A stretch of DNA of 64,000 nt from an uncultured Oligoflexia bacterium. Lineage in GTDB: Bacteria > Bdellovibrionota > UBA1018 > UBA6935. The notes below the pieces were generated by a model, which was not told the DNA's origin, ran no database searches, and worked only from the letters and a program-made list of their open reading frames with translations. The position numbers were made by a program, and so were the translations under genes. Positions 6,120-52,861 of this stretch are shown here, piece after piece. Position 1 is the stretch's first letter; the number at the start of each line of letters is the position of its first letter. Location: NCBI GenBank assembly GCA_964013565.1, contig CAXGWU010000001.1, forward strand, positions 93,601 to 157,600. Reading direction: 5' to 3'.

Positions 6120-8230
6120 GAGAGTTTAGATTTCATTTGTTCTAAAAAAGAAGACACCTTCTGTTCGTGTGCTTCTCGAAGAACTTGGCTTGAAAGATCA
6201 GGTGTAGATGAGACATCTTCTGTGAAAATTAAGTTTCCGGGTATTTCTGATAGGAATCGAGAAGGGTACCGAGGTACTGGTTTCCCGTATCGAATTCTAT
6301 TTTTTGCACGAGTCAGATAGAGTTTTTCTTTTGCACGAGTGATTCCAACGTAGCAAAGACGACGTTCTTCACTATAGTCTGTTGCTTCATCCATGACTCT
6401 TTGATGAGGAAGGTAACCATCCTCCATTCCCACTAAAAAGACAGTGGGGAATTCTAAGCCTTTTGAGCCATGTAAAGTCATGAGTGTCACTTCGTCTTTT
6501 TCCTTACTTTCCTCTTCTTCGCTTTCTTCTTCGGCATCAAGAGTCAATCGAGTGATGTATTCTCTTAAAAACATAAAGCTGTTTTCAGCAGGTTCTTCAA
6601 GTTTCATCTGTCCAAGGCCATGTGCGAGCTCTTGAACCATTTCCCATCGCTGAGATGCTTGTAGGGCATCATCAACGTCGTTTTCTATTCCAGTTCTCAT
6701 TCCTATCCATTCAAAAGTTTGCCTTGCCCAGTCCGCCATAGCCGTTGGTTCAGGCTCAATCTTTTCTAATGCGTTTCTCATCTTTTGGATAAGAGAAGCG
6801 AAGGTCATGACCGCTTGTTTGGGTTTAGTCTTTAAGTCTGCATCAGGAATTGACTCAAAAAAAGAACATTGGTTTTCTACTGAATGGCTATGAATGGTGT
6901 CGATGGTTTTTTTCCCGATTCCTCTTGCAGGCCAATTAATGATTCTTCGAAGTGCAGTTTCTTCATCTGGATTTAAAATCGTTTTCCAGTAACTGAGGGT
7001 ATCTTTGATTTCTTTTCGGTCTAGAAAAGAAAAAGATCCAACTAAACGATAAGGAATCCCTTTCATTCGGAGTGCTTCTTCGAAATGTCTACTTTGTGGA
7101 TTGGATCGAAATAGAATTGCAAAATCACTCCAGTTCATGAGTGTTTTGACTTCCCCTCCCTCGTGTTTTTTTGCGAGATCAAAAATTCGCTCGGCTACGG
7201 TAGTTGCTTCGTCATGATCATCTTCAGTTAAGATGAGTGTTATCGGAGGTCCATCTTCTTTTTGAGACCAAAGCGACTTAGGGTGCCTAACCGAATTATT
7301 TTGAATAACTTGATTTGCGGCATCTAAAATAGTTTGTGTGCTTCGATAATTTTGATCAAGAGTTACTGTTTTTGCTCCTGGGTAGTGTTTTCCAAAATTT
7401 AAAATGTGGGAAGGATCAGCCCCCCTCCAAGCATAAATAGATTGGTCATCGTCTCCCACCACGCAAATATTTTGTTGCTTTAGGGTAAGGAGTCGAATGA
7501 GTTCAAATTGGGCTTGATTGGTGTCTTGGTACTCATCAACAAGAATGTATTTAAATCGATCATTATAGGCGTCACAGACTTCAGGGTGTTTTTTTAATAA
7601 ATCAACAGCGTTGAATAATAAATCGTCAAAGTCCATCGCATTCATGGCCCGAAGTTGATCTTGATACTCCGGATAGGTGGTTGCCATTTCTAAAGCAATT
7701 GGAGAGGATGCCTCATTTCTAGCTGAATTCATAAAAAAAGCTTCAGATTGATGAGGGGGAATAAATCTGTTTTTTGCTTGTCCAATTCCAAACAAGATAA
7801 AAGAAGGATCGAACTTTTTATCATCCACACTATTTTTTCTTAGAATTTTTCTGATGATCTCAATTTGATCATTTTGATCTAAAATAGAAAATTGTGAAGT
7901 GTATCCTAAGCGACTCGCTTCTTGTCTTAAGATTTTAACGCAAAGACTATGAAAAGTAGAAACAGTTAGTCCTTGTGTTCTTTTTTGTGTGATTTTTCTC
8001 ACTTCTGAATAAACGCGGTCTCTGAGTTCTCCAGCAGCCTTATTTGTAAAGCTAAGTCCTAATATTTGGCGCGGAGAGACCTTCTTTTGAGTAATCAAAT
8101 GAATCATTCGATAGGTCATTGTGCTGGTCTTTCCACTCCCTGCTCCTGCTAGGACAAGAAGGGGACCTTCTTCGTGGAGAACGGCTTGGCGTTGATTTGG
8201 ATTGAGTTTTTTTAAGTACTTCGTTTGCAT
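6116..8230 (-). CDS. uvrD: ATP-dependent DNA helicase, UvrD/PcrA/Rep family
   Basis: Walker A AGAGSGKTSTMTYR, motifs DEYQDTNQAQ, QNYRST and a C-terminal VGITRAKEKLYL helicase signature. Confidence 0.85.
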   Translation of the reverse strand: MQTKYLKKLNPNQRQAVLHEEGPLLVLAGAGSGKTSTMTYRMIHLITQKKVSPRQILGLSFTNKAAGELRDRVYSEVRKITQKRTQGLTVSTFHSLCVKILRQEASRLGYTSQFSILDQNDQIEIIRKILRKNSVDDKKFDPSFILFGIGQAKNRFIPPHQSEAFFMNSARNEASSPIALEMATTYPEYQDQLRAMNAMDFDDLLFNAVDLLKKHPEVCDAYNDRFKYILVDEYQDTNQAQFELIRLLTLKQQNICVVGDDDQSIYAWRGADPSHILNFGKHYPGAKTVTLDQNYRSTQTILDAANQVIQNNSVRHPKSLWSQKEDGPPITLILTEDDHDEATTVAERIFDLAKKHEGGEVKTLMNWSDFAILFRSNPQSRHFEEALRMKGIPYRLVGSFSFLDRKEIKDTLSYWKTILNPDEETALRRIINWPARGIGKKTIDTIHSHSVENQCSFFESIPDADLKTKPKQAVMTFASLIQKMRNALEKIEPEPTAMADWARQTFEWIGMRTGIENDVDDALQASQRWEMVQELAHGLGQMKLEEPAENSFMFLREYITRLTLDAEEESEEEESKEKDEVTLMTLHGSKGLEFPTVFLVGMEDGYLPHQRVMDEATDYSEERRLCYVGITRAKEKLYLTRAKNRIRYGKPVPRYPSRFLSEIPGNLIFTEDVSSTPDLSSQVLREAHEQKVSSFLEQMKSKLS

Positions 8231-8310
8231 GGACGATCTTTACTTTAAGGATACGCGGTGCGCTAATCAATCAGAATTCCTTGATTTTATAAGAATCAAA
8301 AAGGAAAAGT

Positions 8311-9795
8311 TTATCGTTTACTGTTAAAAGACAAAAATACACGATTGCATTTTAAATTTTCCCAGCTTTTTTGGTGATCTTGATAAGATTTCACAAGGTT
8401 ATCCAGTATTCTGTTTTTGAAAGGAGCCTTTTCAGAGAAAATTCTTGTTACTTTTTTGCTTGTCATTGAAATTTTTTGAATCAATGTAAAAAGGGTTACC
8501 GAAGGCTGAACGTCTCTTAGAACAGTATTGAGAATGTTTTCAAATTCTTTAGAGGAGATTTTCTTGTTTTTTCGTGCTACGGCTGTTTGTTCAAGAACGA
8601 GAAGAGGGATCCAGCGGTTTTTATAGTTTTTTGAAATTCTATGATAGAATTCAAAAAATTTAGAAATATCTTGTTTTTTACTTTCTTTGTTGAATGGTTT
8701 GTAAAAATTAGCAATTTCAGAATTGATAGATTCAATGTTTATTTTTTCTTTTTCCATTTTTAAAAGTAAATCTTCTTCATAATTCTTTTTTGAGATTCTT
8801 TTTTTTGTCCTATTCTTGATTTTGAATTGGTAGCCTAGCGCTTGAGCTTTTTTTATGACTTCCGCTAAAAAAGAATCGCTTGTAACAAGTTCGTAAATCG
8901 CTTTTTGATATCTAAGGAGATTCATTCTTACATCCGAAGACTTGGGGCCGAGTGACTTGGCGTAGCTATGATTGTTTTTATCTGTTGTAATTTCTGCAAA
9001 GCTTTGATTCCACGCGCCTACATAATGTTCATATCCAACTTCAGCAAACTTTGTTGAGACTTGATCATAGTAGTGAAGAGGAACGATGTTTTTATGATAT
9101 TCTGTTTGATCTGCTTGTTCTAAATTTTTTAATGTAGTTTCTTGAATTTTTCTTTTTTCCTTTAGTTCATATATGGATTCTCGAAAGGTTGGGGCAACTA
9201 CGCCTATAAAATAAAGTCGAGAAATGATGTCTTTGAGGTTTCCCCCGGAGTTTTCGTAGAGTCGGTACATTGCAGCAAGACAAGCTCGTCCTTGTCGTCC
9301 ATTTCCTTTAGAAACGGTGTCTACGAGTATGAGAGGTCTACCATTCATTCCATTTTTTAAGTCAAACCCTTTGCTTTTAAAAAGGCTATAGATTTGTTCG
9401 TCTGTAGGGTTGAATTTTGGACTAAAATCAGGATCCATTCCAAAAGTTGCTTTACTCATCCCCACTCTAATTACTTTATTGGGTTCTCCGATGCTATTGA
9501 AAAACCCTTCAATAATATCTGAAAATATTAGACTATCTCGACCTAAGAAGCCAAAAACTGCGTCTGGATAGATAAAAGATAAATGAGCGATAAATCTTGG
9601 TGCCTCTTTTTCTATAAATTGAAACCAATCAGGAAAAGGATTGTTTCCAGGAATTTCTTTTAAAACAGATTCCACCTTCTTCATAGATGGTCTTACGTTT
9701 TGATTGATTAAATTATTAATATCTTGGTCTTTTTGAGTCCAAGATAACATAGGAGAAAATAAGATAAGTAAGGCAATATATATTTTTGTTTTCAT
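8311..9795 (-). CDS. secreted hypothetical protein; member of an FxGRD / hhhDxSxxG paralog family
   Basis: Signal peptide MKTKIYIALLILFSPMLSW. The N-terminal region (…FGFLGRDSLIF… LILVDTVSKGNGRQGRACLAAMYRLYE…) is alignable with 13234-15192 and 16931-18463. Last gene of the seven-gene secreted operon. Confidence 0.55.
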   Translation of the reverse strand: MKTKIYIALLILFSPMLSWTQKDQDINNLINQNVRPSMKKVESVLKEIPGNNPFPDWFQFIEKEAPRFIAHLSFIYPDAVFGFLGRDSLIFSDIIEGFFNSIGEPNKVIRVGMSKATFGMDPDFSPKFNPTDEQIYSLFKSKGFDLKNGMNGRPLILVDTVSKGNGRQGRACLAAMYRLYENSGGNLKDIISRLYFIGVVAPTFRESIYELKEKRKIQETTLKNLEQADQTEYHKNIVPLHYYDQVSTKFAEVGYEHYVGAWNQSFAEITTDKNNHSYAKSLGPKSSDVRMNLLRYQKAIYELVTSDSFLAEVIKKAQALGYQFKIKNRTKKRISKKNYEEDLLLKMEKEKINIESINSEIANFYKPFNKESKKQDISKFFEFYHRISKNYKNRWIPLLVLEQTAVARKNKKISSKEFENILNTVLRDVQPSVTLFTLIQKISMTSKKVTRIFSEKAPFKNRILDNLVKSYQDHQKSWENLKCNRVFLSFNSKR

Positions 9796-9797
9796 TT

Positions 9798-11288
9798 CTA
9801 TTTTCCTCTCATGAGTGCAATTGCATCTTCTTCTGAATCAATAAGATGAATTCTTCTTTTTAACCATTCAGGGTAATGATCAGAGATTAAGTTTTTAAGT
9901 AACGGTTTATAGAATTCGCTATTTATAAAAGCTAATTGAGAGCGCTTATTTGGATTTCCAGAAAAATCAACAAAAGTTGTTGCTAGTTCTTTCATCGTTC
10001 CATTGCCTCCAGGTCCTACAAAAATAAGGTCTTTGTCGTGCAGTAAAAAAGGAATTCGTGTTTCATAATCCATTGATTCAATGACAAATCTTTTATTGCT
10101 AAAAGAATAAGATTTCCCAATGATAATATCGATGGCAGTTCCTCCATTATCAATGCTTGCATTTGCTGCGGCTTCCATGAGGCCACCCCCCCCACCGCTT
10201 GATAAGATATATTTATTTTTTGCAGAAACTTTAGCTACGAGTTGAACTAGTTGTCTCCAGCGATAGTCAAACGAACTAGACCCAAAAAAAACCGCTTTTT
10301 TATGATCTTTCAAACTTTCAGAAATATAATCTATATCTTCAATTCCAGCTAAGTAATTAGAGATGATTAATTTAAAACTATAATCAAATTGATGACTAAA
10401 CTTTTCTTCGTTGAAAGGAATAATGCTTTTATATCTATTGGGACCCGGAGTAATAAAACTTAAGTCATTTTTAATTTTTAAGTATGAAGACTTAAATTTT
10501 CCTAATGCTTTGAAATTTAAAAAGTCTGAATCCCATTCATTTTTATAGTTAATGAGGAAATCTAGTTTATCGATTAAATGAAGAGCTAAGGCTGTAACAG
10601 AACGAGTATCACCTACTGACTTTCCTATAGAAAAAGCTTTAAGTCTTAAGTAAGGATTTTCAATTGCAATGATGTTTTCATTTAAATTTTCTTTATTTGG
10701 GTCCGCAGTAATGCCTACTCCAAGTTTCCCTAATGTTTTTTGTATATCTTTCGCTGATATTGAATCTGCATCGTAGAAAAATATTTGAGAAAAATTAGAT
10801 AGTGTTTTTTTGAGTGAATTGAGATCGACTGTGGTTGGGTAATCGGTGGTTCCAAAAAGAAGAGTGTATGGATTCATATTGGAAAACGAATCTAACCACT
10901 TAAATCTCATAAGATCTGAAAGAAATGATTTTGATTGATCTTTTCTATCTAATTTAAAAATTTCCTCTATTGATAATTCTTGAGGTTTACTACTTTTTGA
11001 TGGAAGTTTTCTATTCTTGTTTTCGTAATGACTATTGGAATAACCTTTATAAGAATATGGGCTGTCTGTATCTAGACTTGTAACTGGAGATTGATAATCA
11101 AATTGGTATGTGTTGTTAACAGCAATCTCACTTATATCAGGAACTTCATCAATTTTAGGTGGTTTGATTCCGTGAATTCCAAAAACTAAAGCGCATTGAG
11201 AAGAAAATAAATGGTCCAAATTAGAAGTAGCGTTGGATGTTAATGTATAGATGATACCTACTATAGATATCAAAAAAAGATTTTTCAT
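9798..11288 (-). CDS. secreted protein with a C-terminal LOG-family (TIGR00730-like) domain
   Basis: Signal peptide. The C-terminus carries AVFFGSSS… ILSSGGGGGLMEAAANASIDNGGTAIDII… RIPFLLHDKDLIFVGPGGNGTMKEL, which matches the LOG GGGxGLMxA and PGGxGTxxE motifs. Overlaps the upstream gene by 4 nt. Confidence 0.65.
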   Translation of the reverse strand: MKNLFLISIVGIIYTLTSNATSNLDHLFSSQCALVFGIHGIKPPKIDEVPDISEIAVNNTYQFDYQSPVTSLDTDSPYSYKGYSNSHYENKNRKLPSKSSKPQELSIEEIFKLDRKDQSKSFLSDLMRFKWLDSFSNMNPYTLLFGTTDYPTTVDLNSLKKTLSNFSQIFFYDADSISAKDIQKTLGKLGVGITADPNKENLNENIIAIENPYLRLKAFSIGKSVGDTRSVTALALHLIDKLDFLINYKNEWDSDFLNFKALGKFKSSYLKIKNDLSFITPGPNRYKSIIPFNEEKFSHQFDYSFKLIISNYLAGIEDIDYISESLKDHKKAVFFGSSSFDYRWRQLVQLVAKVSAKNKYILSSGGGGGLMEAAANASIDNGGTAIDIIIGKSYSFSNKRFVIESMDYETRIPFLLHDKDLIFVGPGGNGTMKELATTFVDFSGNPNKRSQLAFINSEFYKPLLKNLISDHYPEWLKRRIHLIDSEEDAIALMRGK

Positions 11289-13237
11289 TTTATGTCCCCA
11301 ATAAAATTTTTCTCACATTTTTCCTCAATATCTCCATTAATTACTTCTTTTATAAATGTTTTTTTTATGTGAAGAGATTGAGCCCATTTATTTCCGAGTT
11401 CATCTAAATAGAGGAGTCTAGTTTCGGTATCTGTGGTTGTCGGAATGAGATGACCGTAGTACCAAAGGCTCCACGTTCCATTGTGAAAATATAAACTATC
11501 TGGAGTTAAACCGTGAATATATAGATTTAAATGAACTAGATGATCAAAAAAATCCGCAAGTGCTGTCCATGCAATTGTTTCATGAATTGGAACCGCTGCT
11601 TTATTTGAAAGCTCTCTTAAAGAAACTCCTTGTGGTTCATCTATCGCAACAAAATAAAGACTGTTTCTTATCTTAGAAACAATAATTCTATTCTCTTGTA
11701 GGTGCAATAGCTCATAGTATGAAGGTGTTCCTGGGTCAAACCTAAAGATCACTTGTTTTAAATTTTTTTCTTTTTGAATGATTTCATATTTTTTCAATTC
11801 TCCAATGTTCACTTTTTTTGGCGAAGAATTAATAAAAGGAGGCTCTTTTTTTATGTCATTATTTTCATAATTTAATTCATTACTTTTTTTTCGTCTTTTC
11901 TTTTTGGGACCTTTTGAATGATTTTGGAAGTTTTGTTTATCTAGTAATTCTTTCCAAAATAAATCAATTTCTTTTTTTTTGCTTTTAAGTTCTTCTCTTA
12001 ACCATTTTGTTTTTAGTTTGTTTGAGTATTCATTTAGAGTTCTATGTTTGCTGAAAAAAGTTCTAATTGGTCCGCTATCAACTATTTGCCATTCTTTTCC
12101 ATCAAAAATAAGATTGTCAGGGTTTAATCCGGAGACATAAATGTATTTTTCAGAAGCTTTAATGAAAAATTTTTCTAGTGCTAATTTTTTTGGGTTATTT
12201 TTTGTGTCTAAAATTTTTTCATCGAGAATCGCTTCTCTTAATCGAGTTCCTTCAATGAAATTCATAAGTAGAGACTTTTTATCTGTACTCCATTTCACAT
12301 TAACTGAAGACAGACCGTTTTTTCTCCATTCTTCTGATAGCTCTATCTGTTTTTTGAAACTTTTTTGAATATCCGCACTATCGTTTACTGGAACTTTCCA
12401 AGCCCATAGTTCTCCATTTGAGTCCTTTAACTGATGAACTCTACCTGTTTTTCCAACGCCTACGGCTTCTTTTTCTAATGAGTAACCTTCCGGAATATCG
12501 ACCTCTTTAACTGAGTTAATGAGAGCTAATAATTTTTCCCAGTTTTTTTCTTCAATCAAATCTTTGGCATTTTGTAAGAACTTTCTCCTTTGGCTAACTT
12601 CGGTAATGGTATTGGCTTTTTTTAGAACTTGAAAATGAATTGGTTCGAGATCAATTTTTGGGAAAACATACCGACTCAATCGCCTGAGAGTTTTTGTGTT
12701 TGCTCGGCTTGTGATAATCCAAATTAATTCAAAATCATCTCTATAAGAGGATAGAGGAAGGATATGTTTTGTAAAAGATTCTAATTCATCTAATGGTATG
12801 ATCGCTGCTGTATAACGAAGAGAAGGAAGTAAATTTTTTTCATTACTTTGAGTGAATAGTTTAAAGAGTGTAGAAAAGTTATAAATTTTTTTGTCGCTTA
12901 AAATGCCAATTAGAACATTGTTATTGTTTTTTCCTTTTTCTGAATGCAAATATTGATTAATAATGATGTCTCTTAGACAGAAACTTTCTGTCGCTAGTTT
13001 AATATAAAATTTATCAGGTGGGTTGTTTTGTGATTTAATGATTTCATCAATGATAGCTATATTCATCGCTTTATATTCATTGCTTTTCGCCAAAGATAGT
13101 TTTTTTATAACCTGAGAAATCGCCTCCCACTGTTGATTTTCGATTAGTTTTTTGAGTCGATGTGGAACCACGGTTTGAGCATGTGCTGGTATGATAAAAA
13201 ACAGACAAGCTAAATATAAGAAAATTTGTTTTTTCAT
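11285..13237 (-). CDS. secreted protein with tandem protein-kinase-like domains (atypical, possibly pseudokinase)
   Basis: Signal peptide. Domain 1: Gly-rich loop VGVGKTGRV, Lys in WAWKV, loop SGLNPDNLIF, and DSG. Domain 2: HGLTPDSLYF. Both lack a canonical HRD Asp. Confidence 0.5.
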   Translation of the reverse strand: MKKQIFLYLACLFFIIPAHAQTVVPHRLKKLIENQQWEAISQVIKKLSLAKSNEYKAMNIAIIDEIIKSQNNPPDKFYIKLATESFCLRDIIINQYLHSEKGKNNNNVLIGILSDKKIYNFSTLFKLFTQSNEKNLLPSLRYTAAIIPLDELESFTKHILPLSSYRDDFELIWIITSRANTKTLRRLSRYVFPKIDLEPIHFQVLKKANTITEVSQRRKFLQNAKDLIEEKNWEKLLALINSVKEVDIPEGYSLEKEAVGVGKTGRVHQLKDSNGELWAWKVPVNDSADIQKSFKKQIELSEEWRKNGLSSVNVKWSTDKKSLLMNFIEGTRLREAILDEKILDTKNNPKKLALEKFFIKASEKYIYVSGLNPDNLIFDGKEWQIVDSGPIRTFFSKHRTLNEYSNKLKTKWLREELKSKKKEIDLFWKELLDKQNFQNHSKGPKKKRRKKSNELNYENNDIKKEPPFINSSPKKVNIGELKKYEIIQKEKNLKQVIFRFDPGTPSYYELLHLQENRIIVSKIRNSLYFVAIDEPQGVSLRELSNKAAVPIHETIAWTALADFFDHLVHLNLYIHGLTPDSLYFHNGTWSLWYYGHLIPTTTDTETRLLYLDELGNKWAQSLHIKKTFIKEVINGDIEEKCEKNFIGDIK

Positions 13238-15192
13238 TTTTTAAGGTTTCCAGGTGTTCCAAATAGGATTTGACATGTCGAAGTACTGTTAGAACTAAAG
13301 CTCTTATTTTTACGACTGTCATGATAAAAGAACTCTTTTAAAAAATTCATATCTGAAAGCATTTCAGTTTGAGTTTTGTCTGTAAAAAAATAAGTATAAA
13401 ATCCTTTATTGAGACGTGGAGTGTAGTCTACATTAACAATTTGCTCAGCGTTATCGACCTGAAAATTTGCGGCTTTGAAGTCTAACCAAATGTTTTGTTC
13501 TGCTGCAATTTTTTTTGCGATAAGCCATTGTTCCAATACCTGGTTTTTTATTTTTTTCGGTATTTCTTCAATTGGATTTTGAGAATATTTTGCTTCTAAG
13601 TTTTTTCCGTCAAAGTAAGTTTGTTCTACAATTACCCCTGTTGGATGTGCATAAAGTATTTTTGCATGCCTAAAATTTGGATAATTTTTTAGAATTCTAT
13701 CTTGTGTCCATTTTTGCAAAAGAGATTTACGTGCATTTTTTGGGTTTTTTGTAATTTTAATAACTCTATTTTTATCACTTAAAAATACTTGTACATTTCT
13801 ACCTTCTCCTAGATATCCTTTTAACTTATAGAGGACTGCATTATTAGAGGTTAGAACCATTGGGTAATTTGGATCATCGCTTTTTTTGATTTCCAGAGAT
13901 GAAAAAAAGTCATTTGCTCCCTCTAATGGTTCCAGATATTGCCAATCTTTCATAGCACTGAAGCCTTTTTGATGGACTTCAGATATTTCCTGAAATAAGA
14001 GTTCGTTTTTGTTTAAGTCTTTTTTGTTTTTTCTTATTTTTTCTTGATTTTTAGTGGTCTTCTTTTTTACTGGAATAATTGTTTCAGCAAGTCGTAGATC
14101 AGATACTAGTCCAAGGAGTGATATAACTTTTTGAGATAGTTTTATAGGTTTGTCACTATAAATATGAAGTGACGGTTTTGTTTTAAATTTTAGTCCTGTT
14201 TGTATAAACTTATGACGATGCTCTAGTAGATTGTGAACATGATCAGCATCCCAGTGATTAATTGCTCCTGGAATAGCGATTTGAAATCGTTGAATAGAAA
14301 AAAAATAATCAGTTTCGGTGAGTTTTTTAATAGTCTCTGAAGAGAGTTCTTCGTTGTTCCTGGTGTAATTGTTGATAATATCTTTAAAAGAAGAGTTTCC
14401 ATCTACTCTTTTTGATCTCAAATATCTGAAATCTACAAGTTTCAGGAATTGAGTTGCTTCAGATTTATTTAGGTTTTCACAAATGGCTCTTAAAATTGCT
14501 CTGGGAATTTTTCCAGACATACTTGAATCCATAAATACTAAGCCATTTTTTAATAATCTCTCTTTTGTTAGTCCGATGGAATTTAATAAATGGTAAATTT
14601 CAGAAGTTTGATGGTTGAAGATTAAGTCTCTTATTTTCCTTGATACATTAAGGGTGTAAAGAAAATTTTTATCTATAGATTTTTTTAAAGAGATAAAAAG
14701 ATATGGAGCCGTAAAGTCTCTTCCTATAAAAAATAAATTTTTATTATTAAAATCTCTTTTGATTTCATTTTCTATTTGAGCGATTACAGGAATGATGACT
14801 TCTGTTTCGTATTCTTGAGTGTAACGAATAAGTTGATCTGTTATTTTTTTAGAATCAATTGAATCTAAAGAAACAACACCGATTTTTTTGTCTAATTCAA
14901 GAGCACTATTTTTAAGTTTTGAGCGTTTATTTGACCAATGAAAAAAGAGTTCATTGAAAAACTGAGTTTTTTCTTGAGTCGTTAGAGTTTTAACTTCTTC
15001 TAAAATTAAATAGATGTCATTACGAATTGACTCTAAAATATCGGTTTGAATCCATTTTTTAAGAAATTCATCGTAGCTATTAGAGTTTTGGGCTTGAAGA
15101 GCTGATTCATAGTGATTTTCTATTACATCGCTGGAAAATACATTAGTCTCAGTAAAGCAAAATAATAGAATAAATAAAATTAATTTATTCAT
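13234..15192 (-). CDS. secreted protein with an N-terminal FxGRD-family domain and a C-terminal protein-kinase-like domain
   Basis: Signal peptide. N-terminus has NLFFIGRDF… VFMDSSMSGKIPRAILRAICE, paralogous to 8311 and 16931. C-terminus has LGEGRNVQVF (Gly loop), VIKITK (Lys), DFKAANFQV (catalytic-loop-like D..K..N) and VNVDY. Confidence 0.55.
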   Translation of the reverse strand: MNKLILFILLFCFTETNVFSSDVIENHYESALQAQNSNSYDEFLKKWIQTDILESIRNDIYLILEEVKTLTTQEKTQFFNELFFHWSNKRSKLKNSALELDKKIGVVSLDSIDSKKITDQLIRYTQEYETEVIIPVIAQIENEIKRDFNNKNLFFIGRDFTAPYLFISLKKSIDKNFLYTLNVSRKIRDLIFNHQTSEIYHLLNSIGLTKERLLKNGLVFMDSSMSGKIPRAILRAICENLNKSEATQFLKLVDFRYLRSKRVDGNSSFKDIINNYTRNNEELSSETIKKLTETDYFFSIQRFQIAIPGAINHWDADHVHNLLEHRHKFIQTGLKFKTKPSLHIYSDKPIKLSQKVISLLGLVSDLRLAETIIPVKKKTTKNQEKIRKNKKDLNKNELLFQEISEVHQKGFSAMKDWQYLEPLEGANDFFSSLEIKKSDDPNYPMVLTSNNAVLYKLKGYLGEGRNVQVFLSDKNRVIKITKNPKNARKSLLQKWTQDRILKNYPNFRHAKILYAHPTGVIVEQTYFDGKNLEAKYSQNPIEEIPKKIKNQVLEQWLIAKKIAAEQNIWLDFKAANFQVDNAEQIVNVDYTPRLNKGFYTYFFTDKTQTEMLSDMNFLKEFFYHDSRKNKSFSSNSTSTCQILFGTPGNLKK

Positions 15193-16880
15193 CTTTTATT
15201 CCTCTTTTTATTAAAGAAATAAATTTCTTCATCTAAAAGGCCAAAGCTGAAGAGGGTCTCTATAGTGATTTTTAATTCAAAATCGTTTTTGACAAAATGA
15301 ATTCTATCTTTAATGAATTGCGGAATTGATGAGCTGTCGATTTGATTTTTTAAGCCACTGTAATAGTCATCACCCACAAAAATGATCTCTAATTTTTCTT
15401 TTGGGTTTTCTAGAAGTTTTAGAATCGTTATCCAAAATTCTTTCATGGTTCCAGAGCCTCCTGGAACAAAAACAACAAGTTGTTTTTCGTGAAGAAGGAG
15501 AGGGATTCGGGTTTCATATCCACTACTCGAAACGGTAAGAGAATGATGTTCTTTTTCTACTTTTTTTTCTGTTTTTAGAGTGTGTTTACCCGTGATAGGG
15601 ATCCCAACTGATGGAACATGAGATGATATTGCTGCAGTATTTGAAGTTTTCATGGCACCGCCAGCTCCGCCAGTCGTGATGCTAATATCAAGAGATCCTA
15701 AGGCGAGACCAGATTTGAAAATAAGGTTCTCAAAAGGATTCTCATCCCTTCCCGTTCCAAAAACTGCAGCTCCTCTTACTCCTGTTAAATCTTCTTGTCC
15801 GATTAGAAGTTCAGTAACTTCTTTGACGATATGATCAATTTGATAATCAGAAAGGTCTGAAAGAGTTATTTTTTTTGGTTTAAATTGTTTTGTAATTATT
15901 GGGAAAATTTCTGTCTCAACGTGAGGAGAGGTACGAATAGGCTCTCCTGCAAGGTCAAATTCTTGATTAAAGTAACTTTTACTGTAGATAGGAGATGAAG
16001 GGATTTTTTTAATCGCTGTAGTAACGGTTGTAGCTTGATCAAAAATAGGTATTTCTTTAGTTCGAACTCCCATGTTTATGTTCATAAGATCTAAGTCTTG
16101 TTTCCATTGATGAAGAGAAAAGTTCCATTCTTTTTTTGGATCAAAAATAATGTCTATTTCATTATTGAATAATCCCGCAAATCCAGTTGTGGAGTCAGGA
16201 GTTGTAATTATTTTTTCCGAGGTGTTAAATAAAGCCTGTGCTCTTAAGTAGGTGTTTTTAATGTAAACTTGGCCTCTTTGTTTTGTTGGTTGATTAGAGA
16301 TACCAAAAGATGATTTTTGAGCTAGAGATTGAATTAGTTTAGCGTAAGGACTATTTGATTCGTAGAGGATAAAATATCCACGAGAAATAAATTGAGAAAC
16401 TAATTCGGTCAATTCAGTTTGCATTTGAGGATCAGGCTGTGTTCCAGAAGTCCCTGCAAGAATCGTCACTGTTTGTTTTGAATTTAGTTTTTTTAATCTT
16501 TCTAGGTTGAGGTGATCTTGAATGTACTGACCTTCAGTAGTTAATAATACCAATTCAAGTGCTTTTAGGTTTTTTTCTCTGTTTGTTTTTTTTAGACGTT
16601 GAATCTCTGAAGTTATTTGAGCTATTTGCTTTTTTACCGATTGATTTTCTTTTTTTCCAGAATTACTAAAAATTTTTTTTAGTAATCCTCTTTGTTTTTT
16701 AGAAATTTTTTTAGTATTTAAAGACGTTAATTTTTTTTCTAATTCTTTAATCCGTTCTGACTCCTGATTTAGACTAGTTAGTCGTTCTAATGTGGATAGA
16801 CGACTTAAAAAATTTTCTTCACATCCGGCTAAAGAGAAGTGATGGGCAATTAAAGTTAAAATAATAATAAGTTTTTTCAC
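15189..16880 (-). CDS. lipoprotein with a C-terminal LOG-family domain
   Basis: Lipobox LAGC after the signal peptide. C-terminus has AAVFGTGR… ISITTGGAGGAMKTSNTAA… RIPLLLHEKQLVVFVPGGSGTMKEF (LOG motifs). Paralogous over this domain to 9798-11288. Confidence 0.65.
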   Translation of the reverse strand: MKKLIIILTLIAHHFSLAGCEENFLSRLSTLERLTSLNQESERIKELEKKLTSLNTKKISKKQRGLLKKIFSNSGKKENQSVKKQIAQITSEIQRLKKTNREKNLKALELVLLTTEGQYIQDHLNLERLKKLNSKQTVTILAGTSGTQPDPQMQTELTELVSQFISRGYFILYESNSPYAKLIQSLAQKSSFGISNQPTKQRGQVYIKNTYLRAQALFNTSEKIITTPDSTTGFAGLFNNEIDIIFDPKKEWNFSLHQWKQDLDLMNINMGVRTKEIPIFDQATTVTTAIKKIPSSPIYSKSYFNQEFDLAGEPIRTSPHVETEIFPIITKQFKPKKITLSDLSDYQIDHIVKEVTELLIGQEDLTGVRGAAVFGTGRDENPFENLIFKSGLALGSLDISITTGGAGGAMKTSNTAAISSHVPSVGIPITGKHTLKTEKKVEKEHHSLTVSSSGYETRIPLLLHEKQLVVFVPGGSGTMKEFWITILKLLENPKEKLEIIFVGDDYYSGLKNQIDSSSIPQFIKDRIHFVKNDFELKITIETLFSFGLLDEEIYFFNKKRNKR

Positions 16881-16930
16881 CGTTTATTTAGTCCTTTTTT
16901 AAAAGTAAGATTTGCTTTTTTTAAAATGAT

Positions 16931-18463
16931 TTATTTTTTATCTATTTGTGTAAAAATTCGATTACATCCAGTTTTTGTAAGATAATCTGAGATGGTTTTA
17001 GTGTGTTCCGAAATTTTCCCTCCAAATTTGTCGGAGTTTTTAAATTCATCTTCTCTTTTTTCAAACATAGATCTGAATTTTTCATCGTTTTCATAAAGCT
17101 CCCGAATAGCTTTTAGTTGATCGTCAGAAAGAGAAGGAGTGTTGCCTAGGACATAACGATAAAGTCGTTTATAATCTCTTCCTTTAATTTTCTGAGAAGC
17201 TCTTGCTCTAGTGATAGCCTGCATAAATGGGACAATGATTTTGTCTTTAAAATCTGTATTTTGAAATTGCTTTAACCATTGAAGGTAGTGATTTCCGTTG
17301 TTTGAGAGTTTGTTTGTGATTTCTCCGGGTTCATTTAAAGATTGTTCTATTTCAAAAAGGTTTTTTAGATGTTCTTTAAGTTGTTCTTGTTTTTTCTCTT
17401 CTTGAAGAGCTAATTCTTTTTTTCTTTGTTTTTTTCTTTCATTGATTTGTTGTGACGTTAGTGATTGATAAAGTTTTGAATTTCCATCTAAATCAATTTT
17501 ATAGAGTTTTAGATATTCATCTAATTTGTCTTTAAATTCATTAGATTTAATGAGTTCGATAATTATATAAATTTCTTGTAAAACAGTTTTTTTTGAAATA
17601 TTCGAAAATTGCACGCCAGAAATTGGAATAAGTTTTTCGTTTATTTCTTTAAAACCTAGCCATGAATCATGCCACTCTGAAGTCCTATGATTTATCCTAA
17701 AAAAAGTTCCATAACTTGTGCTTAATCGTGGAACCGGTACGCCGTCTATATGAGATAGTGATGATACGTTTTCGAAAAAGTTTTCCTGATCAAAGTCTTC
17801 GTTGATAGTATGTTTTAGGTTGTTGTCGCTAATATTAACAAACGCAATTTTTCCAAGAAGATCTTTTGGGTCTTTTCCTAGATTTTTGTAGGTTTCATAG
17901 AGATATCTCATCGTTAGCCTGGATTGGCTTGCTTCTCCTCCTCCTCCTCCACTGGTATAAGTTGGGCTATAGCTACTAAAATCATAGAGAACCCAAGGGG
18001 CACTTTCTGTAATGGTATCGAAGTTAATGCCTAGAGACTGAGCATATCGAACAATGGTTTCTGAGGAAGAGTTTTTAAAACTTGGAGTACTTGCGTTGAA
18101 TCTTCCTGCGCGATTAGGCTCACCTCTCAGATAGTAAAACGCTTCCAGGGCTAGACTATTTTGGATGACATCTCTTCCAAGAGAAAAATATCTTCCTCCA
18201 GGAAAGGCTTTTTCAAAACTTACAATCATTCTGGCGATATTGTTTATAGCATTAGGGTAAGCATTAGCGATAAACTCTTGATTAAGCATTTTTTCATGAC
18301 TCGGCCATGGGTTGAGTACAGTGAGCATTTCTTCGATTGTGGGAACTGTTTTTTTTTGTACTAACTCATCAATTTGATTTTCTAATTGTGTTTGATCAGA
18401 AAAAGCAAAAGAAATGAAAAGAAAGTGGAGGCTAAAAAAAATAGATTTATTTATGAGTTTCAT
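16931..18463 (-). CDS. secreted hypothetical protein; FxGRD / hhhDxSxxG paralog family member
   Basis: Start chosen at the internal Met (MKLINKSIFFSLHFLFISFAFS signal peptide) so that it abuts rather than overlaps the Prs-like gene. Carries RYFSLGRDVIQ… WVLYDFSSYSPTYTSGGGGGEASQSRLTMRYLYE. Confidence 0.5.
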   Translation of the reverse strand: MKLINKSIFFSLHFLFISFAFSDQTQLENQIDELVQKKTVPTIEEMLTVLNPWPSHEKMLNQEFIANAYPNAINNIARMIVSFEKAFPGGRYFSLGRDVIQNSLALEAFYYLRGEPNRAGRFNASTPSFKNSSSETIVRYAQSLGINFDTITESAPWVLYDFSSYSPTYTSGGGGGEASQSRLTMRYLYETYKNLGKDPKDLLGKIAFVNISDNNLKHTINEDFDQENFFENVSSLSHIDGVPVPRLSTSYGTFFRINHRTSEWHDSWLGFKEINEKLIPISGVQFSNISKKTVLQEIYIIIELIKSNEFKDKLDEYLKLYKIDLDGNSKLYQSLTSQQINERKKQRKKELALQEEKKQEQLKEHLKNLFEIEQSLNEPGEITNKLSNNGNHYLQWLKQFQNTDFKDKIIVPFMQAITRARASQKIKGRDYKRLYRYVLGNTPSLSDDQLKAIRELYENDEKFRSMFEKREDEFKNSDKFGGKISEHTKTISDYLTKTGCNRIFTQIDKK

Positions 18464-18464
18464 T

Positions 18465-19850
18465 TTATTTAATCTTTCTGCGTATAAATAACGTTTTACA
18501 AAGTGGAGTCTTTTTTTCTCCTGAAAATACAGACTGTAAAGTTTCCGAAATTTCAAAACCTAAATTTAAAACTGATATATCTGGCTGAGTAATGTTAAAT
18601 GAATTCGTCACAACCATGAGATCAATGTCTGGCGAGTCAATTGCTTTTTGAGCGTTTCCTGCAAGATGGCTAACAACACCAAATATCTTATTTGCACCAT
18701 GCTTTTTAAGAAACTCTGCTGACTCGGCAAGTGTTCCTCCAGAGGCAGTTTCGTCATCAACAATCGCTACAGTATGCCCTTTTACAGAGTCTCCACTAAT
18801 CCCGAGAATACGAGTCTCTCCAGTGAGAGGATTTCTTTTCTTATTGATAATTGCGAGGGGTAGGTGAAGTTCTTCTGCATATAAAGTAGCATCTTTTTGA
18901 AAACCAGCGTCAGGAGAAACGATAATAGAAACTCCCAGTTTCTTGAGTTCTTTATTGATTGTTTCTCTTCCGTTGATTTCAAAAACAGGGATAGAAAAAA
19001 AACCTACACTCTGAGGTGCATGCGGTCTTACAATTGTTATTGTTTTTACTCCTAGTCCCTCAATGAGGTCAGCAGTGAGTCTTCCTGTTACAGTAATTCC
19101 AAATTGATCTATCTTATCTGATCGAGCATAAGGAAGGTAGGGAGAGATCAGGTGAACTTGTTGCCACTTTGATTGAGTGCTATATATTTTATGTAAAGTA
19201 TCAAAAAATGATTTGTTTATTGGAGACTCAAGAGAAGATACATAAAATATATTGTATCCAGAGAGCTTTTTATTGTTGGGGTTCCATTCAGATTCTTGAA
19301 TGACTGGGATATTGAGTTGTTTTGATAAGGTGTCTCTCAATGAAGGGTTTGTGTCTCCTACAATTGCAAACTTTTTTTTAAAATTTTTTGTTTTTGTTTG
19401 ATATTCTGGAAAGTCATAATCTTGGTTTGCAATACGGTAAGATTCCGCCCCCGAAATTTTGAAAAGTTTTAATACAAAAGTTGAAGGTAAGGATTCAGAT
19501 TCAAAATGAACGGATATTGATAAGGCACCCATTGTTTTAGCGGTGCGAACTTTAATGAGAGCTTCCATAAGAAGGTCATCATGATCTTCAATGTTGTTTG
19601 GAATATACAGAGTTAGTTTCTGATTGATAGGATTTTTTAAAAATCGAACAAAAGTATTTCCGTTGCTAAACTCCGTTGTTTTTGTCGGAAGAATTTTACT
19701 TTCAATAGTTTCAGAATACGATTGAGTCTTTGCCTCATATCCACGAATTCCAACAAGCCATGGCTTTTTAGAAGCGATACAAACATTTGAAAAGCTAAAG
19801 CTTAAAAGAAATAAAAGTCCAAATTGTATTTTTTTTTGTGCCCCACCCAT
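18465..19850 (-). CDS. secreted ribose-phosphate pyrophosphokinase (Prs/PRPP synthetase) homolog with an N-terminal extension
   Basis: Signal peptide MGGAQKKIQFGLLFLLSFSFSNVCIA. Matches Prs landmarks: FAIVGDTNPSLRDTL…, ISPYLPYARSDK (cf. PYFGYARQDRK), RPHAPQSVGFFSIPVFEING (cf. DLHAxQIQGFFDIPVDN), IVSPDAG, AIINKKR, and PRPP loop VAIVDDETASGGT. The first ~130 aa look like a degenerate extra Prs N-half. Confidence 0.7.
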   Translation of the reverse strand: MGGAQKKIQFGLLFLLSFSFSNVCIASKKPWLVGIRGYEAKTQSYSETIESKILPTKTTEFSNGNTFVRFLKNPINQKLTLYIPNNIEDHDDLLMEALIKVRTAKTMGALSISVHFESESLPSTFVLKLFKISGAESYRIANQDYDFPEYQTKTKNFKKKFAIVGDTNPSLRDTLSKQLNIPVIQESEWNPNNKKLSGYNIFYVSSLESPINKSFFDTLHKIYSTQSKWQQVHLISPYLPYARSDKIDQFGITVTGRLTADLIEGLGVKTITIVRPHAPQSVGFFSIPVFEINGRETINKELKKLGVSIIVSPDAGFQKDATLYAEELHLPLAIINKKRNPLTGETRILGISGDSVKGHTVAIVDDETASGGTLAESAEFLKKHGANKIFGVVSHLAGNAQKAIDSPDIDLMVVTNSFNITQPDISVLNLGFEISETLQSVFSGEKKTPLCKTLFIRRKIK

Positions 19851-20214
19851 TAATACTTTTGATCCTTTCTTATGTGTTTCTAGGAGTCCTTAGAATTCGA
19901 ATTGCAATGTGTCAATCTGTATGGTTAAAAAAATTATAAGAAGAATTTGCTTTTTATAATTAAAACCAACTTAGATTGTTGTTTATGAATAGATTGATTT
20001 AATGAGATTTCTTTATAGATAACCGGTTATTTGATTTTAAAATCGGTTTGTTAATGCCTATTTTGTTGTTTAGAAGAATCCAATGATAAATTAATGCATA
20101 TTGCTAATCTAAATGGATGGAAGTTCTACAGTTTAATGAATAAAGACGAAGGATCTAAAGTTTATGAATGTGTCTGCCTTGTTCTAAATGAGGATCATGC
20201 TAGAGTACCATGCG

Positions 20215-34768: not shown

Positions 34769-35621
34769 ATAGAGTCCTGTTTCTTTTTTCTACTAATTTA
34801 AAATGCAAACTGTAGTTTTGAAGTGAGAGACCGTAAGATCCTGAATTTGCAATATATCCTTCTTTGTAGCGAATGCCACCTAAGTTTTTATGGACTTCTG
34901 GATTGAGTTTGTGTCTTAAAACACTGTGCCATTCTCCATTTTGATCTACAATTGCACCGGTCTGACTTTCTTCATTATAATAAGTTCCTTCAATTTTAGG
35001 CCCTCGATAAAAGAGAATGCTTGCTCGAGCACCAATACCGACGCGAGAATGAATTTCAATCAAGGGTCTAGCGTTAAAAGTTTCTTTCATTTTTTTGTAT
35101 TGTTCTTGAATTTGTTGAGAGAAGTTTTCGACGGCGGGTTGATTGGCGAGTACCTCACTAAGATTTTTTTCTAGTGCTTCATCGTATCCACTTGAGTAAA
35201 AAAAATGTTCTAAGAGAAGTTGAATTCTTGTAGAAGAAGTCTCAAAGGAGTGTTTGATCACTTCAAAAAGAACTGGTTTTTGAATGTCTTTTGGCCATTT
35301 TAATAGTTTGGATACAAAATCAGAGGTTGTAGTTCTGTTCTGAAACTCATAGAGATCAACAGAACGAATAACAAATGGAATTAATTCTTCACTTGGTAAG
35401 CTGAGTGAAGCTTCTCCAATTTTTTCTAAATAGTTTGAAAAATAAGAAAGATCATTAATTGAAGCGTCATGAGCTCTTGCTAAGTTCAGTCTTATGTCAC
35501 CGAGAAGTTTTTGTTTGATTCCTTTTAGGCCTGAGAATTGATAACGGCAAGTAATGGGTTTCGGTGGCTGAGCGTATGAATATAAAGAGAAAAGAGAAAT
35601 AAATAGAAGAAGCAGTTTCAT
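34767..35621 (-). CDS. hypothetical secreted protein
   Basis: Signal peptide MKLLLLFISLFSLYSYA. No recognisable motif. 4-nt overlap with the upstream gene. Confidence 0.5.
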   Translation of the reverse strand: MKLLLLFISLFSLYSYAQPPKPITCRYQFSGLKGIKQKLLGDIRLNLARAHDASINDLSYFSNYLEKIGEASLSLPSEELIPFVIRSVDLYEFQNRTTTSDFVSKLLKWPKDIQKPVLFEVIKHSFETSSTRIQLLLEHFFYSSGYDEALEKNLSEVLANQPAVENFSQQIQEQYKKMKETFNARPLIEIHSRVGIGARASILFYRGPKIEGTYYNEESQTGAIVDQNGEWHSVLRHKLNPEVHKNLGGIRYKEGYIANSGSYGLSLQNYSLHFKLVEKRNRTL

Positions 35622-36532
35622 CGTTTTTTACCCTTTTTGTCGTAAAATTCAGACTCACAGTGACCTAAAAGTCCACGGTGGAGTCGTTGAAATCCATTGA
35701 GTGAAGCACGGGTTGTTTTTCTAGGGAAAAAGAGGCGAACTCCTGTTTGATCAAGAGATGAAAAAATGGAAAGAACTTTGTTTTCTGTAGATGGTGAGAG
35801 ACTTGCTTGAAAAAGAACGCGTTCTCGTTGATTGATATAAATTTCAATAAGGTTTTCAGCAATGAATTGCTTTTTTTTCATTTGTTCTGAAGCTTTTTGT
35901 TCTGTCCTTATTTTTTCTAAAATAGAGACTTGTCTTCGAAGGATTTCAGCAATTTTCAAATGAAAATCTTCGACAGGACGGAGTTTGAATTCTGAAGTCA
36001 ACTCATATCCATGTTGAAGGAGTATAAGGGTATCATTAAAATAGCGAATAAAGCGACGACCATCATCTTTCAGAGCTTCTCGCTCAAGATGATTTAAGTA
36101 GGAGGGATCGCTAATGGGGAGGCGATTTCGTAAAGTGAGTCGACGGAGATAGTTTTTTCTTTGGATGACCTCTTCTTGAAGCGTTTCTTTTACCATTGAA
36201 GAAAAAGAGGGGGAGTAATCATGAATCGCATTAAGCGCAGTGATTGCTTGATTTTGTTTTCTGTGTTCAAATGCATTCATTATTTCATTTCCCATTTGAT
36301 AGAGAAGAAGAACTAATTTGTCTTTTCTTGTTTCACGGCGAATTTTTGGATCTAAAAAAAGCTCTGTAAATTCTTTAGATTTTAAGGACAATGCAATCGG
36401 ATGATTTGTGAGGACAGCGTAGACTTTTTCTTGCCATTGAATTTCGTATTCGATTTCAGGATGGGTTGAGTGTGCATGTAAGGGGAGGAGAGAGACGATG
36501 ATACCGGTAAAAAAGAGTGTTATCGTTTTCAT
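35618..36532 (-). CDS. hypothetical secreted protein
   Basis: Signal peptide MKTITLFFTGIIVSLLPLHA. No recognisable motif. Confidence 0.5.
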   Translation of the reverse strand: MKTITLFFTGIIVSLLPLHAHSTHPEIEYEIQWQEKVYAVLTNHPIALSLKSKEFTELFLDPKIRRETRKDKLVLLLYQMGNEIMNAFEHRKQNQAITALNAIHDYSPSFSSMVKETLQEEVIQRKNYLRRLTLRNRLPISDPSYLNHLEREALKDDGRRFIRYFNDTLILLQHGYELTSEFKLRPVEDFHLKIAEILRRQVSILEKIRTEQKASEQMKKKQFIAENLIEIYINQRERVLFQASLSPSTENKVLSIFSSLDQTGVRLFFPRKTTRASLNGFQRLHRGLLGHCESEFYDKKGKKR

Positions 36533-47659: not shown

Positions 47660-48553
47660 TTATTCAAGCGCCCAATCAAAAATTCCATGGATTCTTAATC
47701 TTCTGACTTCTTCTTTGAGTCGATCTACTTCAATTTGAAGGTCTTCGATTCTGTTGATGAACGTTGAAGCCGTAAAAAACAGGGTTTCAACGTCAATGCT
47801 TATTTGAAGAAGTGCTTTTGAGTGATTTTGCAATAACACTCGATAGTAAATTCGGGCATTTTTGAGTTCATCAATACGGTAGTTATCAATACTTAAGGCG
47901 AGATCAAAAAGTTCTTTTTCAGTAGATTCAATAATGTCGAGTTGAGTGCTTTCTAAGAGTTCAAATGGGTTGAGATAGTTTCTTCTTAAATGTTCAATGA
48001 TGAATGCGTCAATTCCCCCAATGATTCCACCTGTAAGATAGACTTGAGTTCTACCAATGAGGGTTTTTGGAAGCTCATGAGAGACAACCTTCAGTCGTCG
48101 AGAGAATTGCTCTAGGTTTGTCTTTCCTGCAGAAACCCAAGCAGATTTTTTAAATAAACCACGAGTCCATTTAAATCCATAAAACAAAGTCCAGTATACA
48201 GCAATATCTTTAAAGATAATCATGACGGGATGACGTTTCTCTTGTTCATCCAGTTCTCTTTGAATCATTGATTGTATTTGAGAGAGAAGTAAAACGGTAT
48301 TTGCTCGGTCAATCGGATTCCAGCGATAATGACTTATTAAATTAAGAAGCGTTTCATTAAAATCTTCTTTTGAAAGAGATTTAATTCTTCTGGAGAGAGC
48401 ACGGGCATGTCTGAGTTGTAGATCTTCACTCGAGGGAGAGTCGTTTTCATTTGATGAATAAGTATTAAAATAATCTTGAATCATTTGATCTGACCAAGGA
48501 GCTGCATAAGAAAATCCATGAAATAAAAAAATTCCTAATAAAAATTGAATCAT
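47660..48553 (-). CDS. hypothetical secreted protein
   Basis: Signal peptide MIQFLLGIFLFHGFSYA (start at the internal Met). No known motif. First of three co-directional AT-rich genes. Confidence 0.45.
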   Translation of the reverse strand: MIQFLLGIFLFHGFSYAAPWSDQMIQDYFNTYSSNENDSPSSEDLQLRHARALSRRIKSLSKEDFNETLLNLISHYRWNPIDRANTVLLLSQIQSMIQRELDEQEKRHPVMIIFKDIAVYWTLFYGFKWTRGLFKKSAWVSAGKTNLEQFSRRLKVVSHELPKTLIGRTQVYLTGGIIGGIDAFIIEHLRRNYLNPFELLESTQLDIIESTEKELFDLALSIDNYRIDELKNARIYYRVLLQNHSKALLQISIDVETLFFTASTFINRIEDLQIEVDRLKEEVRRLRIHGIFDWALE

Positions 48554-52649: not shown

Positions 52650-52861
52650 GGAGTTTTTATAACGCAATAAGTCATTGTTTTCAATGAAGAAGGTTCGTAG
52701 GGCCTTTGATTCAAATTTCAGGTTCGACCCATGCATTTATTTGAAATTACTATTAAAATTGTAACGATTTAGTCTGGAACTTCGAATAAGTTCTATTACA
52801 GGCGAAAAATAGTACTTCTAAAAAGGAAAGTTTGTTTCGATTGACTCGATTATCAATCTTT

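Follow-up and report, generated by a model that had tools for sequence, protein, structure and literature searches.

An unannotated family of predicted exported, phosphoribosyltransferase-like proteins from a seven-gene operon of an Oligoflexia bacterium

Results

A compact operon with three related genes

We analysed a stretch of 64,000 nucleotides (hereafter the window) from an uncultured Oligoflexia bacterium of the Bdellovibrionota (assembly GCA_964013565.1, contig CAXGWU010000001.1, positions 93,601 to 157,600), in which positions 8311-19850 hold a compact operon of seven genes on the minus strand (Table 1). Three of its products, two of a subfamily that we call famA and one of a subfamily famB, belong to a previously unannotated protein family, absent from Pfam and NCBIfam. 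On balance, we read this family as exported, divergent phosphoribosyltransferases (PRTs) that depend on phosphoribosyl pyrophosphate (PRPP) and are fed by their own LOG and PRPP synthase (Prs) enzymes. Genes are cited below by their lower coordinate where needed.

The seven genes touch, overlap by 4 nt or are separated by gaps of at most 51 nt, and housekeeping genes flank them (a UvrD-like helicase, thyA and folA, named from their sequences). The operon is AT-rich, with a G+C content of about 31% (0.31-0.35 over window positions 8001-20000) against 37-40% in the flanks, as would fit an island that was acquired or evolves fast. A scan for promoters and terminators was uninformative, promoter-like sites being rarer than in shuffled sequences. 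For the 16931 gene, the mechanical open reading frame (ORF) begins at a TTG (18556), which would give it a 92-nt overlap with the Prs gene. The likelier start is the ATG at 18463, which gives a normal signal peptide and is also the start used in the first-pass annotation of this DNA and in database entry P0010. One database entry, from a Tara Oceans metagenome-assembled genome (MAG) named 'Bdellovibrionaceae bacterium', matches the 8311 protein exactly.

Table 1. Genes of the operon, in the order of transcription, and their predicted parts (window coordinates)
Feature	Coordinates	Strand	Description
Prs paralog	18465-19850	-	461 aa; signal peptide; extra N-terminal region of ~150 aa
C-terminal motif	18486-18503	-	LCKTLF
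famA paralog 1	16931-18463	-	510 aa; identical to database protein P0010
PRT-like domain	17414-18391	-	~aa 25-350
GRD motif	18131-18190	-	
Asp/Gly loop	17894-17995	-	
C-terminal motif	16952-16969	-	GCNRIF
LOG/SLOG-like	15189-16880	-	563 aa; lipobox-like LAGC at aa 17-20; LOG motifs GGAGGAMK, PGGSGTMKE
famB	13234-15192	-	652 aa; signal peptide
Divergent PRT-like N-domain	14053-15132	-	~aa 21-380
IGRDF	14686-14736	-	
NVSR	14626-14652	-	
DSSMSGKIP	14476-14538	-	
DxxHxHNxxEHRxKF	14206-14250	-	
Kinase-like C-domain	13258-13905	-	~aa 430-645
End motif	13261-13278	-	TCQILF
11285 protein	11285-13237	-	Predicted exported; 650 aa; two kinase-like repeats
C-terminal motif	11303-11320	-	KCEKNF
Second LOG/SLOG-like	9798-11288	-	496 aa; signal peptide; single Cys at aa 32 (SQCALVF); GGGGGLMEAA, PGGNGTMKE
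famA paralog 2	8311-9795	-	494 aa; database protein P0001
PRT-like domain	8776-9732	-	~aa 22-340
RPS	9685-9693	-	
GRD motif	9499-9555	-	
Loop-2 Ser	9442-9462	-	
Asp/Gly/Gln loop	9253-9333	-	
WNQS	8998-9018	-	
C-terminal motif	8335-8352	-	KCNRVF

Three paralogs, one of them divergent

The first-pass annotation had proposed, from two motifs compared by eye, that the 8311, 16931 and 13234 genes encode three copies of a domain homologous over about 150 aa. All six motif strings that it quoted were found in the genes named (motif 1 and motif 2, respectively, at aa 81-99 and 155-181 in 8311, 92-111 and 157-190 in 16931, and 153-169 and 219-239 in 13234). It had also named pairwise E-values with shuffled controls as the means of refuting the proposal. 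By that measure the likeness of 8311 and 16931 is significant over their full length (BLASTP, E 2e-16; Smith-Waterman on the N-terminal 340 aa, z = 22 with 500 shuffles), and the two are paralogs across about 490 aa. The 13234 protein, in contrast, is not significantly similar to either in pairwise comparison (BLASTP not significant; Smith-Waterman, p 0.12 and 0.22), and its relationship emerges at the level of profiles and fold. Alignment by hhalign of the two subfamily profiles (A1/A3 and A2, each the subfamily with its metagenomic relatives, 4-9 sequences per profile) gave E 5e-6 (probability 86%) and 1.3e-5 (probability 80%) over 97-119 columns, in the register that the annotation had proposed, where GRD falls on GRD and the hhhD-S-x-G loop on the corresponding loop. 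The real pair scored 49, as against 14-15 for reversed profiles and at most 26 for 25 block-shuffled ones. We conclude that the paralogy is real, the 13234 protein representing, as judged from these profiles, a divergent subfamily. The proposed homology thus held, but its extent had been underestimated, the domain measuring about 330 aa and two of the copies being related throughout. In famB an invariant His-rich motif, D-x-x-H-x-H-N-x-x-E-H-R-x-K-F, replaces the W-H-D-S motif of famA, and may bind a metal or an acceptor, a possible distinction between the two subfamilies.

A large unannotated family with invariant polar residues

The annotation had also recommended building an alignment and a hidden Markov model (HMM) and searching metagenomes with it. 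A search with word-indexed methods returned just 3-4 relatives per query, and the family came into view only with an exhaustive HMM search. Run on 1.84 billion cluster representatives (clusters at 50% identity), it revealed 352 representatives at E<=1e-3, 247 of them at E<=1e-30. The 16931 protein matches the famA HMM at 1e-102. The match spans about 330 residues, within proteins of 300-1864 aa. All ten genome loci recovered, with a search that used a four-sequence alignment, belong to the Bdellovibrionota (Bdellovibrio, Oligoflexia, Bacteriovorax, Pseudobdellovibrionaceae), and a cluster look-up returned only the name 'hypothetical protein', save for one protein assigned to Bacteriovorax sp. 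BSW11_IV, a culturable species that encodes family member M899_1769.

The statement that no known family could be assigned proved right for sequence libraries: the three proteins have no match in Pfam, NCBIfam or PDB sequences, and an HMM search of the PDB with the three family profiles gave noise. A structural relative does exist, as described below. Outside the shared domain, Pfam left the extra regions of 45 long family members nearly blank (one Pkinase, one ABC1 and weak HAD matches). Across 93 sequences, P36, G85-R86-D87, S114, D159 and Q168 (8311 numbering) are invariant, and W262 and several others nearly so, which, judged from the alignment, amounts to an active-site pattern.

Predicted fold and comparison with gPRTs

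The CriT domain of Haemophilus influenzae Bcs3 (PDB 8A0C) and the ribofuranosyltransferase of Thermobacillus composti (PDB 7SHG) are glycan phosphoribosyltransferases (gPRTs), which move ribose-5-phosphate from PRPP to a sugar hydroxyl (PMC10299916, PMC11127046, PMC11294581). Structural models of famA and famB were nearest to these PRPP-dependent ribofuranosyltransferases, followed by type I PRTases, and show the PRT-like alpha/beta core flanked by helical bundles that characterises the gPRT fold. The modelled order of elements (strand-GRD-helix, strand-Ser-helix, strand-Asp-loop-helix, strand) agrees with the published description of CriT-CAT (beta20-loop1-alpha37, beta21-loop2-alpha38, beta22-loop3-alpha45; PMC10299916). 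The models thus lead us to consider, with a little more confidence than doubt, that the core shared by the family is a PRT-like fold whose nearest solved structures are gPRT/CriT.

For the comparison of motifs we used the true Bcs3 sequence, on which the published numbering was verified. In Bcs3, loop 1 consists of S678-R679-D680, loop 2 contains S707, R708 and R712, and loop 3 comprises E818 and residues 821-825; D680 and E818 stand in for the 'DD' pair of classical PRTases, and loop 3 (E818...T825) holds the ribose and 5-phosphate of PRPP (PMC10299916). The corresponding pairs of Bcs3 and famA motifs are IYFISRDGHFLKQIADKI against FGFLGRDSLIFSDIIEGF, YGSRKAW against GMSKATF, and FVEFWGRGYTQD against LVDTVSKGNGRQGR. 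Loop 1 (S-R-D in Bcs3, G-R-D here) and the loop-2 Ser, invariant in the 93 sequences, occupy the same strand-loop-helix places in the model, a correspondence of motifs and not a superposition, and the distance from Asp to Ser is exactly 27 residues both in famA and in Bcs3 (D680 to S707), and 25 in famB. At loop 3, the invariant D159 closes strand 3, with T-V-S-K-G-N-G-R-Q after it, and Bcs3 reads E-F-W-G-R-G-Y-T-Q; the final Gln, invariant in famA, is not conserved in famB. By analogy with D680 and E818 of CriT, D87 and D159 would hold the ribose, the Arg of GRD and S114 the pyrophosphate, and the T-x-S-x-G...Q loop the 5-phosphate. The earlier suggestion that the second motif resembles a nucleotide- or PRPP-binding loop is thereby supported, by the models, by the correspondence with CriT loop 3 and by the Prs paralog of the operon.

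The type I PRTases (HGPRT, OPRT, UPRT, APRT; PF00156) are more distant. The family has a single acidic residue instead of DD, the second acid coming from loop 1 as in CriT, and its domain is much larger, with helical extensions and no recognisable hood domain or flexible loop; neither the PF00156 Pribosyltran model nor the PRPP motif hhhhDDhhxTGxT found a match in it.

Partner enzymes and conserved neighbourhood

We compared 12 independent loci (the window, L001, L004 and L007-L015). LOG-like genes adjoin famA in 11 of them, and 7 (the window and 6 of the 11 others) have a Prs paralog; the loci without Prs are short or truncated contigs, plus the stand-alone 1864-aa protein of Bacteriovorax sp. 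BSW11_IV. Most loci carry two to four famA paralogs, and famB occurs in 4/12. Between the famA paralogs of one locus, from an uncultured Bdellovibrio MAG (L001), lie genes for a RelA/SpoT-family pyrophosphokinase (12006-13013, minus strand), a further nucleotide-pyrophosphoryl enzyme of the neighbourhood, and for a 1298-aa protein without Pfam match (14589-18485, minus strand).

The Prs paralog of the window passes the curated Prs test (TIGR01251 ribP_PPkin, 180.4 bits against a cutoff of 113), and matches Pfam Pribosyltran_N, Pribosyl_synth and Pribosyltran as well as Prs structures in the PDB (E 7e-29). It fits the Prs models well from residue ~193 onward only, the additional ~150 residues following the signal peptide, and the Prs paralogs of related loci are all likewise long (474-514 aa). 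The LOG-like proteins retain the GGxGxM and PGGxGTxxE motifs. In the window, the 15189-16880 product matches Pfam Lysine_decarbox (33.1 bits, cutoff 27) and LDcluster4 (29.4 bits, cutoff 26.3), with weak matches to TIGR00730 and PpnN, and the 9798-11288 product matches LDcluster4 (32.5 bits, same cutoff) and Lysine_decarbox (25.3 bits), with weak matches to TIGR00725 and TIGR00730. These partners are like the LOG/PpnN and class I Prs pair in their motifs and in passing TIGR01251, and would jointly make PRPP from nucleotides; they differ in being predicted exported paralogs with long N-terminal extensions, co-encoded with PRT-like transferases. In the open-access literature searched, we found no earlier description of the family, of the operon or of this arrangement of LOG, Prs and PRT-like genes.

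The first-pass annotation had described one copy as fused to a kinase. The C-terminal domain of the 13234 protein carries kinase-like motifs (the Gly-rich loop LGEGRNVxV, an invariant Lys, WLDF(K/R)xxNF and VD(Y/F), conserved in four sequences) but lacks HMM or profile support: it has no Pfam or PDB match, and hhalign to the kinase-like proteins of related loci reached E 0.0075 at best. Residues 226-440 of the 11285 protein, which has no direct Pfam, NCBIfam or PDB match, are homologous (E 1e-36 and 2e-19) to proteins of related loci with weak Pfam Pkinase matches (E 2e-5 and 4e-6). Its kinase-like domain is internally duplicated (E ~1e-6 between the halves). Both equivalents of the catalytic loop, GLNPDNLIF (12104-12130) and GLTPDSLYF (11486-11512), lack the usual Asp; the protein may thus be a pseudokinase or an atypical transferase.

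Export signals and terminal cysteines

Signal-peptide-like N-termini are present in 85 of 91 family members (~93%), in all seven proteins of the operon (one with a lipobox), and, in every locus examined, in the Prs, LOG-like, kinase-like and famB proteins. The literature places known gPRTs in the cytoplasm (PMC11127046), and export, as read from these N-termini, is the chief departure of the family from them. Because all seven proteins carry signal peptides, the pathway presumably acts outside the cytoplasm of the producer, in the envelope or in prey.

A Cys lies within the last 25 residues in 74 of the 91 members (median 8 from the end), with the consensus C-[EAD]-x-x-[LF]; these proteins otherwise contain hardly any Cys (0.11%, median 0), so that chance would predict 2.7%. 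The same C-terminal motif is found on the Prs, famB and kinase-like partners, and across loci L001-L014. The LOG-like proteins instead have C-x-x-h-[FY] a few residues past the signal peptide (window positions 11181-11201 and 16809-16832). The lone terminal Cys suggests intermolecular disulfides, lipidation or a sorting signal. An unrelated 304-aa protein of the window (35618-36532, minus strand), with a signal peptide, no other Cys and no significant Pfam match, ends in the same motif, GHCESEFYDKKGKKR, so that the motif may be general to the exported proteins of this organism and not specific to the operon.

Discussion

We build on the paralogy, the family, the similarity of fold, the correspondence of motifs and the conserved neighbourhood, and infer from them a donor, a cycle, a compartment and an acceptor. 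That PRPP would serve as donor, with transfer of ribose-5-phosphate to a hydroxyl acceptor, is suggested indirectly, by the Prs encoded alongside the family in the window and in 6/11 other loci. LOG and PpnN enzymes convert nucleoside monophosphates into base and ribose-5-phosphate, and Prs converts ribose-5-phosphate and ATP into PRPP and AMP. The LOG-like proteins and the Prs paralog would perform these two steps here; as AMP can re-enter via LOG, the net result would be ATP to PRPP and adenine. The three PRT-like paralogs would spend that PRPP to phosphoribosylate acceptors, and the kinase-like domains would add or prime phosphates.

Several results weigh against such a PRPP-dependent, exported family. 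The models come from shallow alignments (7 and 4 sequences), with confidence scores (pLDDT) of 74 and 72 and one 59-residue insert unmodelled, and Foldseek with the famA model found nothing significant in the PDB (best E 0.046; Bcs3 E 0.16-0.46). Alignments by hhalign of famA (93 sequences) or famB with Bcs3 alone, or with a gPRT profile of 13 sequences from metagenome relatives (L016-L028), were not significant (E 0.09-0.4), nor were those restricted to segments; we therefore do not claim sequence homology to gPRT, and hmmsearch of PDB sequences likewise found no gPRT match. None of the seven operon proteins matches a HAD phosphatase at E<=1, the obligatory partner of known gPRTs. The signal peptides were called by a hydrophobicity heuristic and not by a trained predictor. 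Finally, Prs and kinases require ATP, which is not expected in the periplasm, and this makes the working compartment puzzling. One might speculate that the most economical site is a compartment that contains ATP, such as the prey cytoplasm.

Taken further, the same reasoning leads to a self-contained exported pathway, in which LOG-like and Prs enzymes would make PRPP from nucleotides and ATP outside the producer cytoplasm, for example in invaded prey, and a radiation of gPRT-like enzymes, some of them kinase-fused, would phosphoribosylate macromolecules of the prey or envelope, the enzymes perhaps being linked via their lone terminal cysteines. We offer this fuller scheme tentatively and hold it to be doubtful as a whole; if true, it would be the first PRPP-dependent modification system to work outside the cytoplasm or between organisms. 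The known route that takes PRPP-derived ribose outside the cytoplasmic membrane is the three-component addition of pentofuranose by a polyprenyl-phosphoribose synthase, a flippase and a GT-C enzyme (PMC11127046). Those systems spend PRPP in the cytoplasm, and what they export is a lipid-linked sugar, whereas here export signals are predicted on the soluble enzymes that make and use PRPP; no UbiA-type or GT-C component is encoded in the operon.

An alternative that we consider unlikely, while giving it real weight, is a PRT- or Rossmann-like fold that makes no use of PRPP, the proteins binding or processing a different phosphorylated ligand, be it a nucleotide, NAD/ADP-ribose or a sugar phosphate, or acting as non-catalytic sensors or scaffolds in a nucleotide-centred conflict or effector system with SLOG domains. 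SLOG/LDcluster4 domains are often proposed as nucleotide sensors, one related locus encodes the RelA/SpoT-type pyrophosphokinase, and the sequence links to PRPP enzymes, like the Foldseek results, are not significant. On the other hand, the polar residues that never vary (R, D, S, D, Q) suit an active site better than a scaffold, their positions and spacing match those of the CriT loops that contact PRPP, and a Prs paralog is a recurrent neighbour of the family.

An ordinary cytoplasmic gPRT, which would add ribofuranose to the cell's own capsule, O-antigen or teichoic-like polymer with housekeeping-style PRPP, is improbable. Against the cytoplasmic location of the gPRTs (PMC11127046) stand the signal peptides on most members and on all partners, and neither a HAD-type phosphoribose phosphatase (PRP) nor a glycosyltransferase, ABC transporter or other glycan-assembly gene lies in the operon or among its uvrD-like, thyA and folA neighbours. 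The loci typically hold several paralogs, and a dedicated Prs and LOG do not characterise known ribofuranose (Ribf) loci. The family differs from gPRTs further in its reduced HB-2 helical insert, large in gPRTs, in its fusions to coiled-coil tails or kinase-like domains, and in a distribution so far confined to Bdellovibrionota. We therefore set it outside the gPRTs proper, for want of sequence homology, of a HAD partner and of a cytoplasmic glycan-assembly context. In one distant member of 1296 aa (P0048), weak HAD matches (residues 613-815; Acid_phosphat_B E 0.003, NIF E 0.006) lie downstream of the PRT-like domain, an arrangement that recalls, by analogy, the pairing of gPRT and PRP in canonical ribofuranosyltransferases.

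That there are just two paralogs, the likeness of 13234 being a chance match of two short motifs, is very improbable: its non-significant pairwise comparisons, the hhalign probability of just 80-86% and the small profiles would speak for it, and the margin of the real profile pair over its reversed and shuffled controls speaks against.

To our knowledge, it was not until 2022-2023 that PRPP-dependent glycosyl transfer to hydroxyl acceptors was recognised, and then solely as a cytoplasmic part of capsule and O-antigen synthesis. If the family consists of exported PRPP-dependent transferases, as we favour, at least 350 clusters at 50% identity would share the fold and active-site layout of gPRT in a very different setting, exported, in bacteria of predatory type and, in most loci, next to Prs and LOG-like enzymes with export signals of their own. 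The chemistry, if true, would define a new class of secreted enzymes, perhaps a new means of modifying or starving prey, would give a function to dozens of 'hypothetical' genes per Bdellovibrionota genome, and would offer glycoengineering a minimal enzyme set from ATP to PRPP together with new phosphoribosyl transferases.

Other features of the window

A second AT-rich stretch (47660-52736, minus strand; G+C 0.31 at 50-52 kb) holds three ORFs of 303, 505 and 906 aa without Pfam match. Nearby, on the plus strand, positions 54960-58487 hold an ORF of 1175 aa, likewise without Pfam match, which has 23 Cys and a hydrophobic, signal-peptide-like N-terminus.

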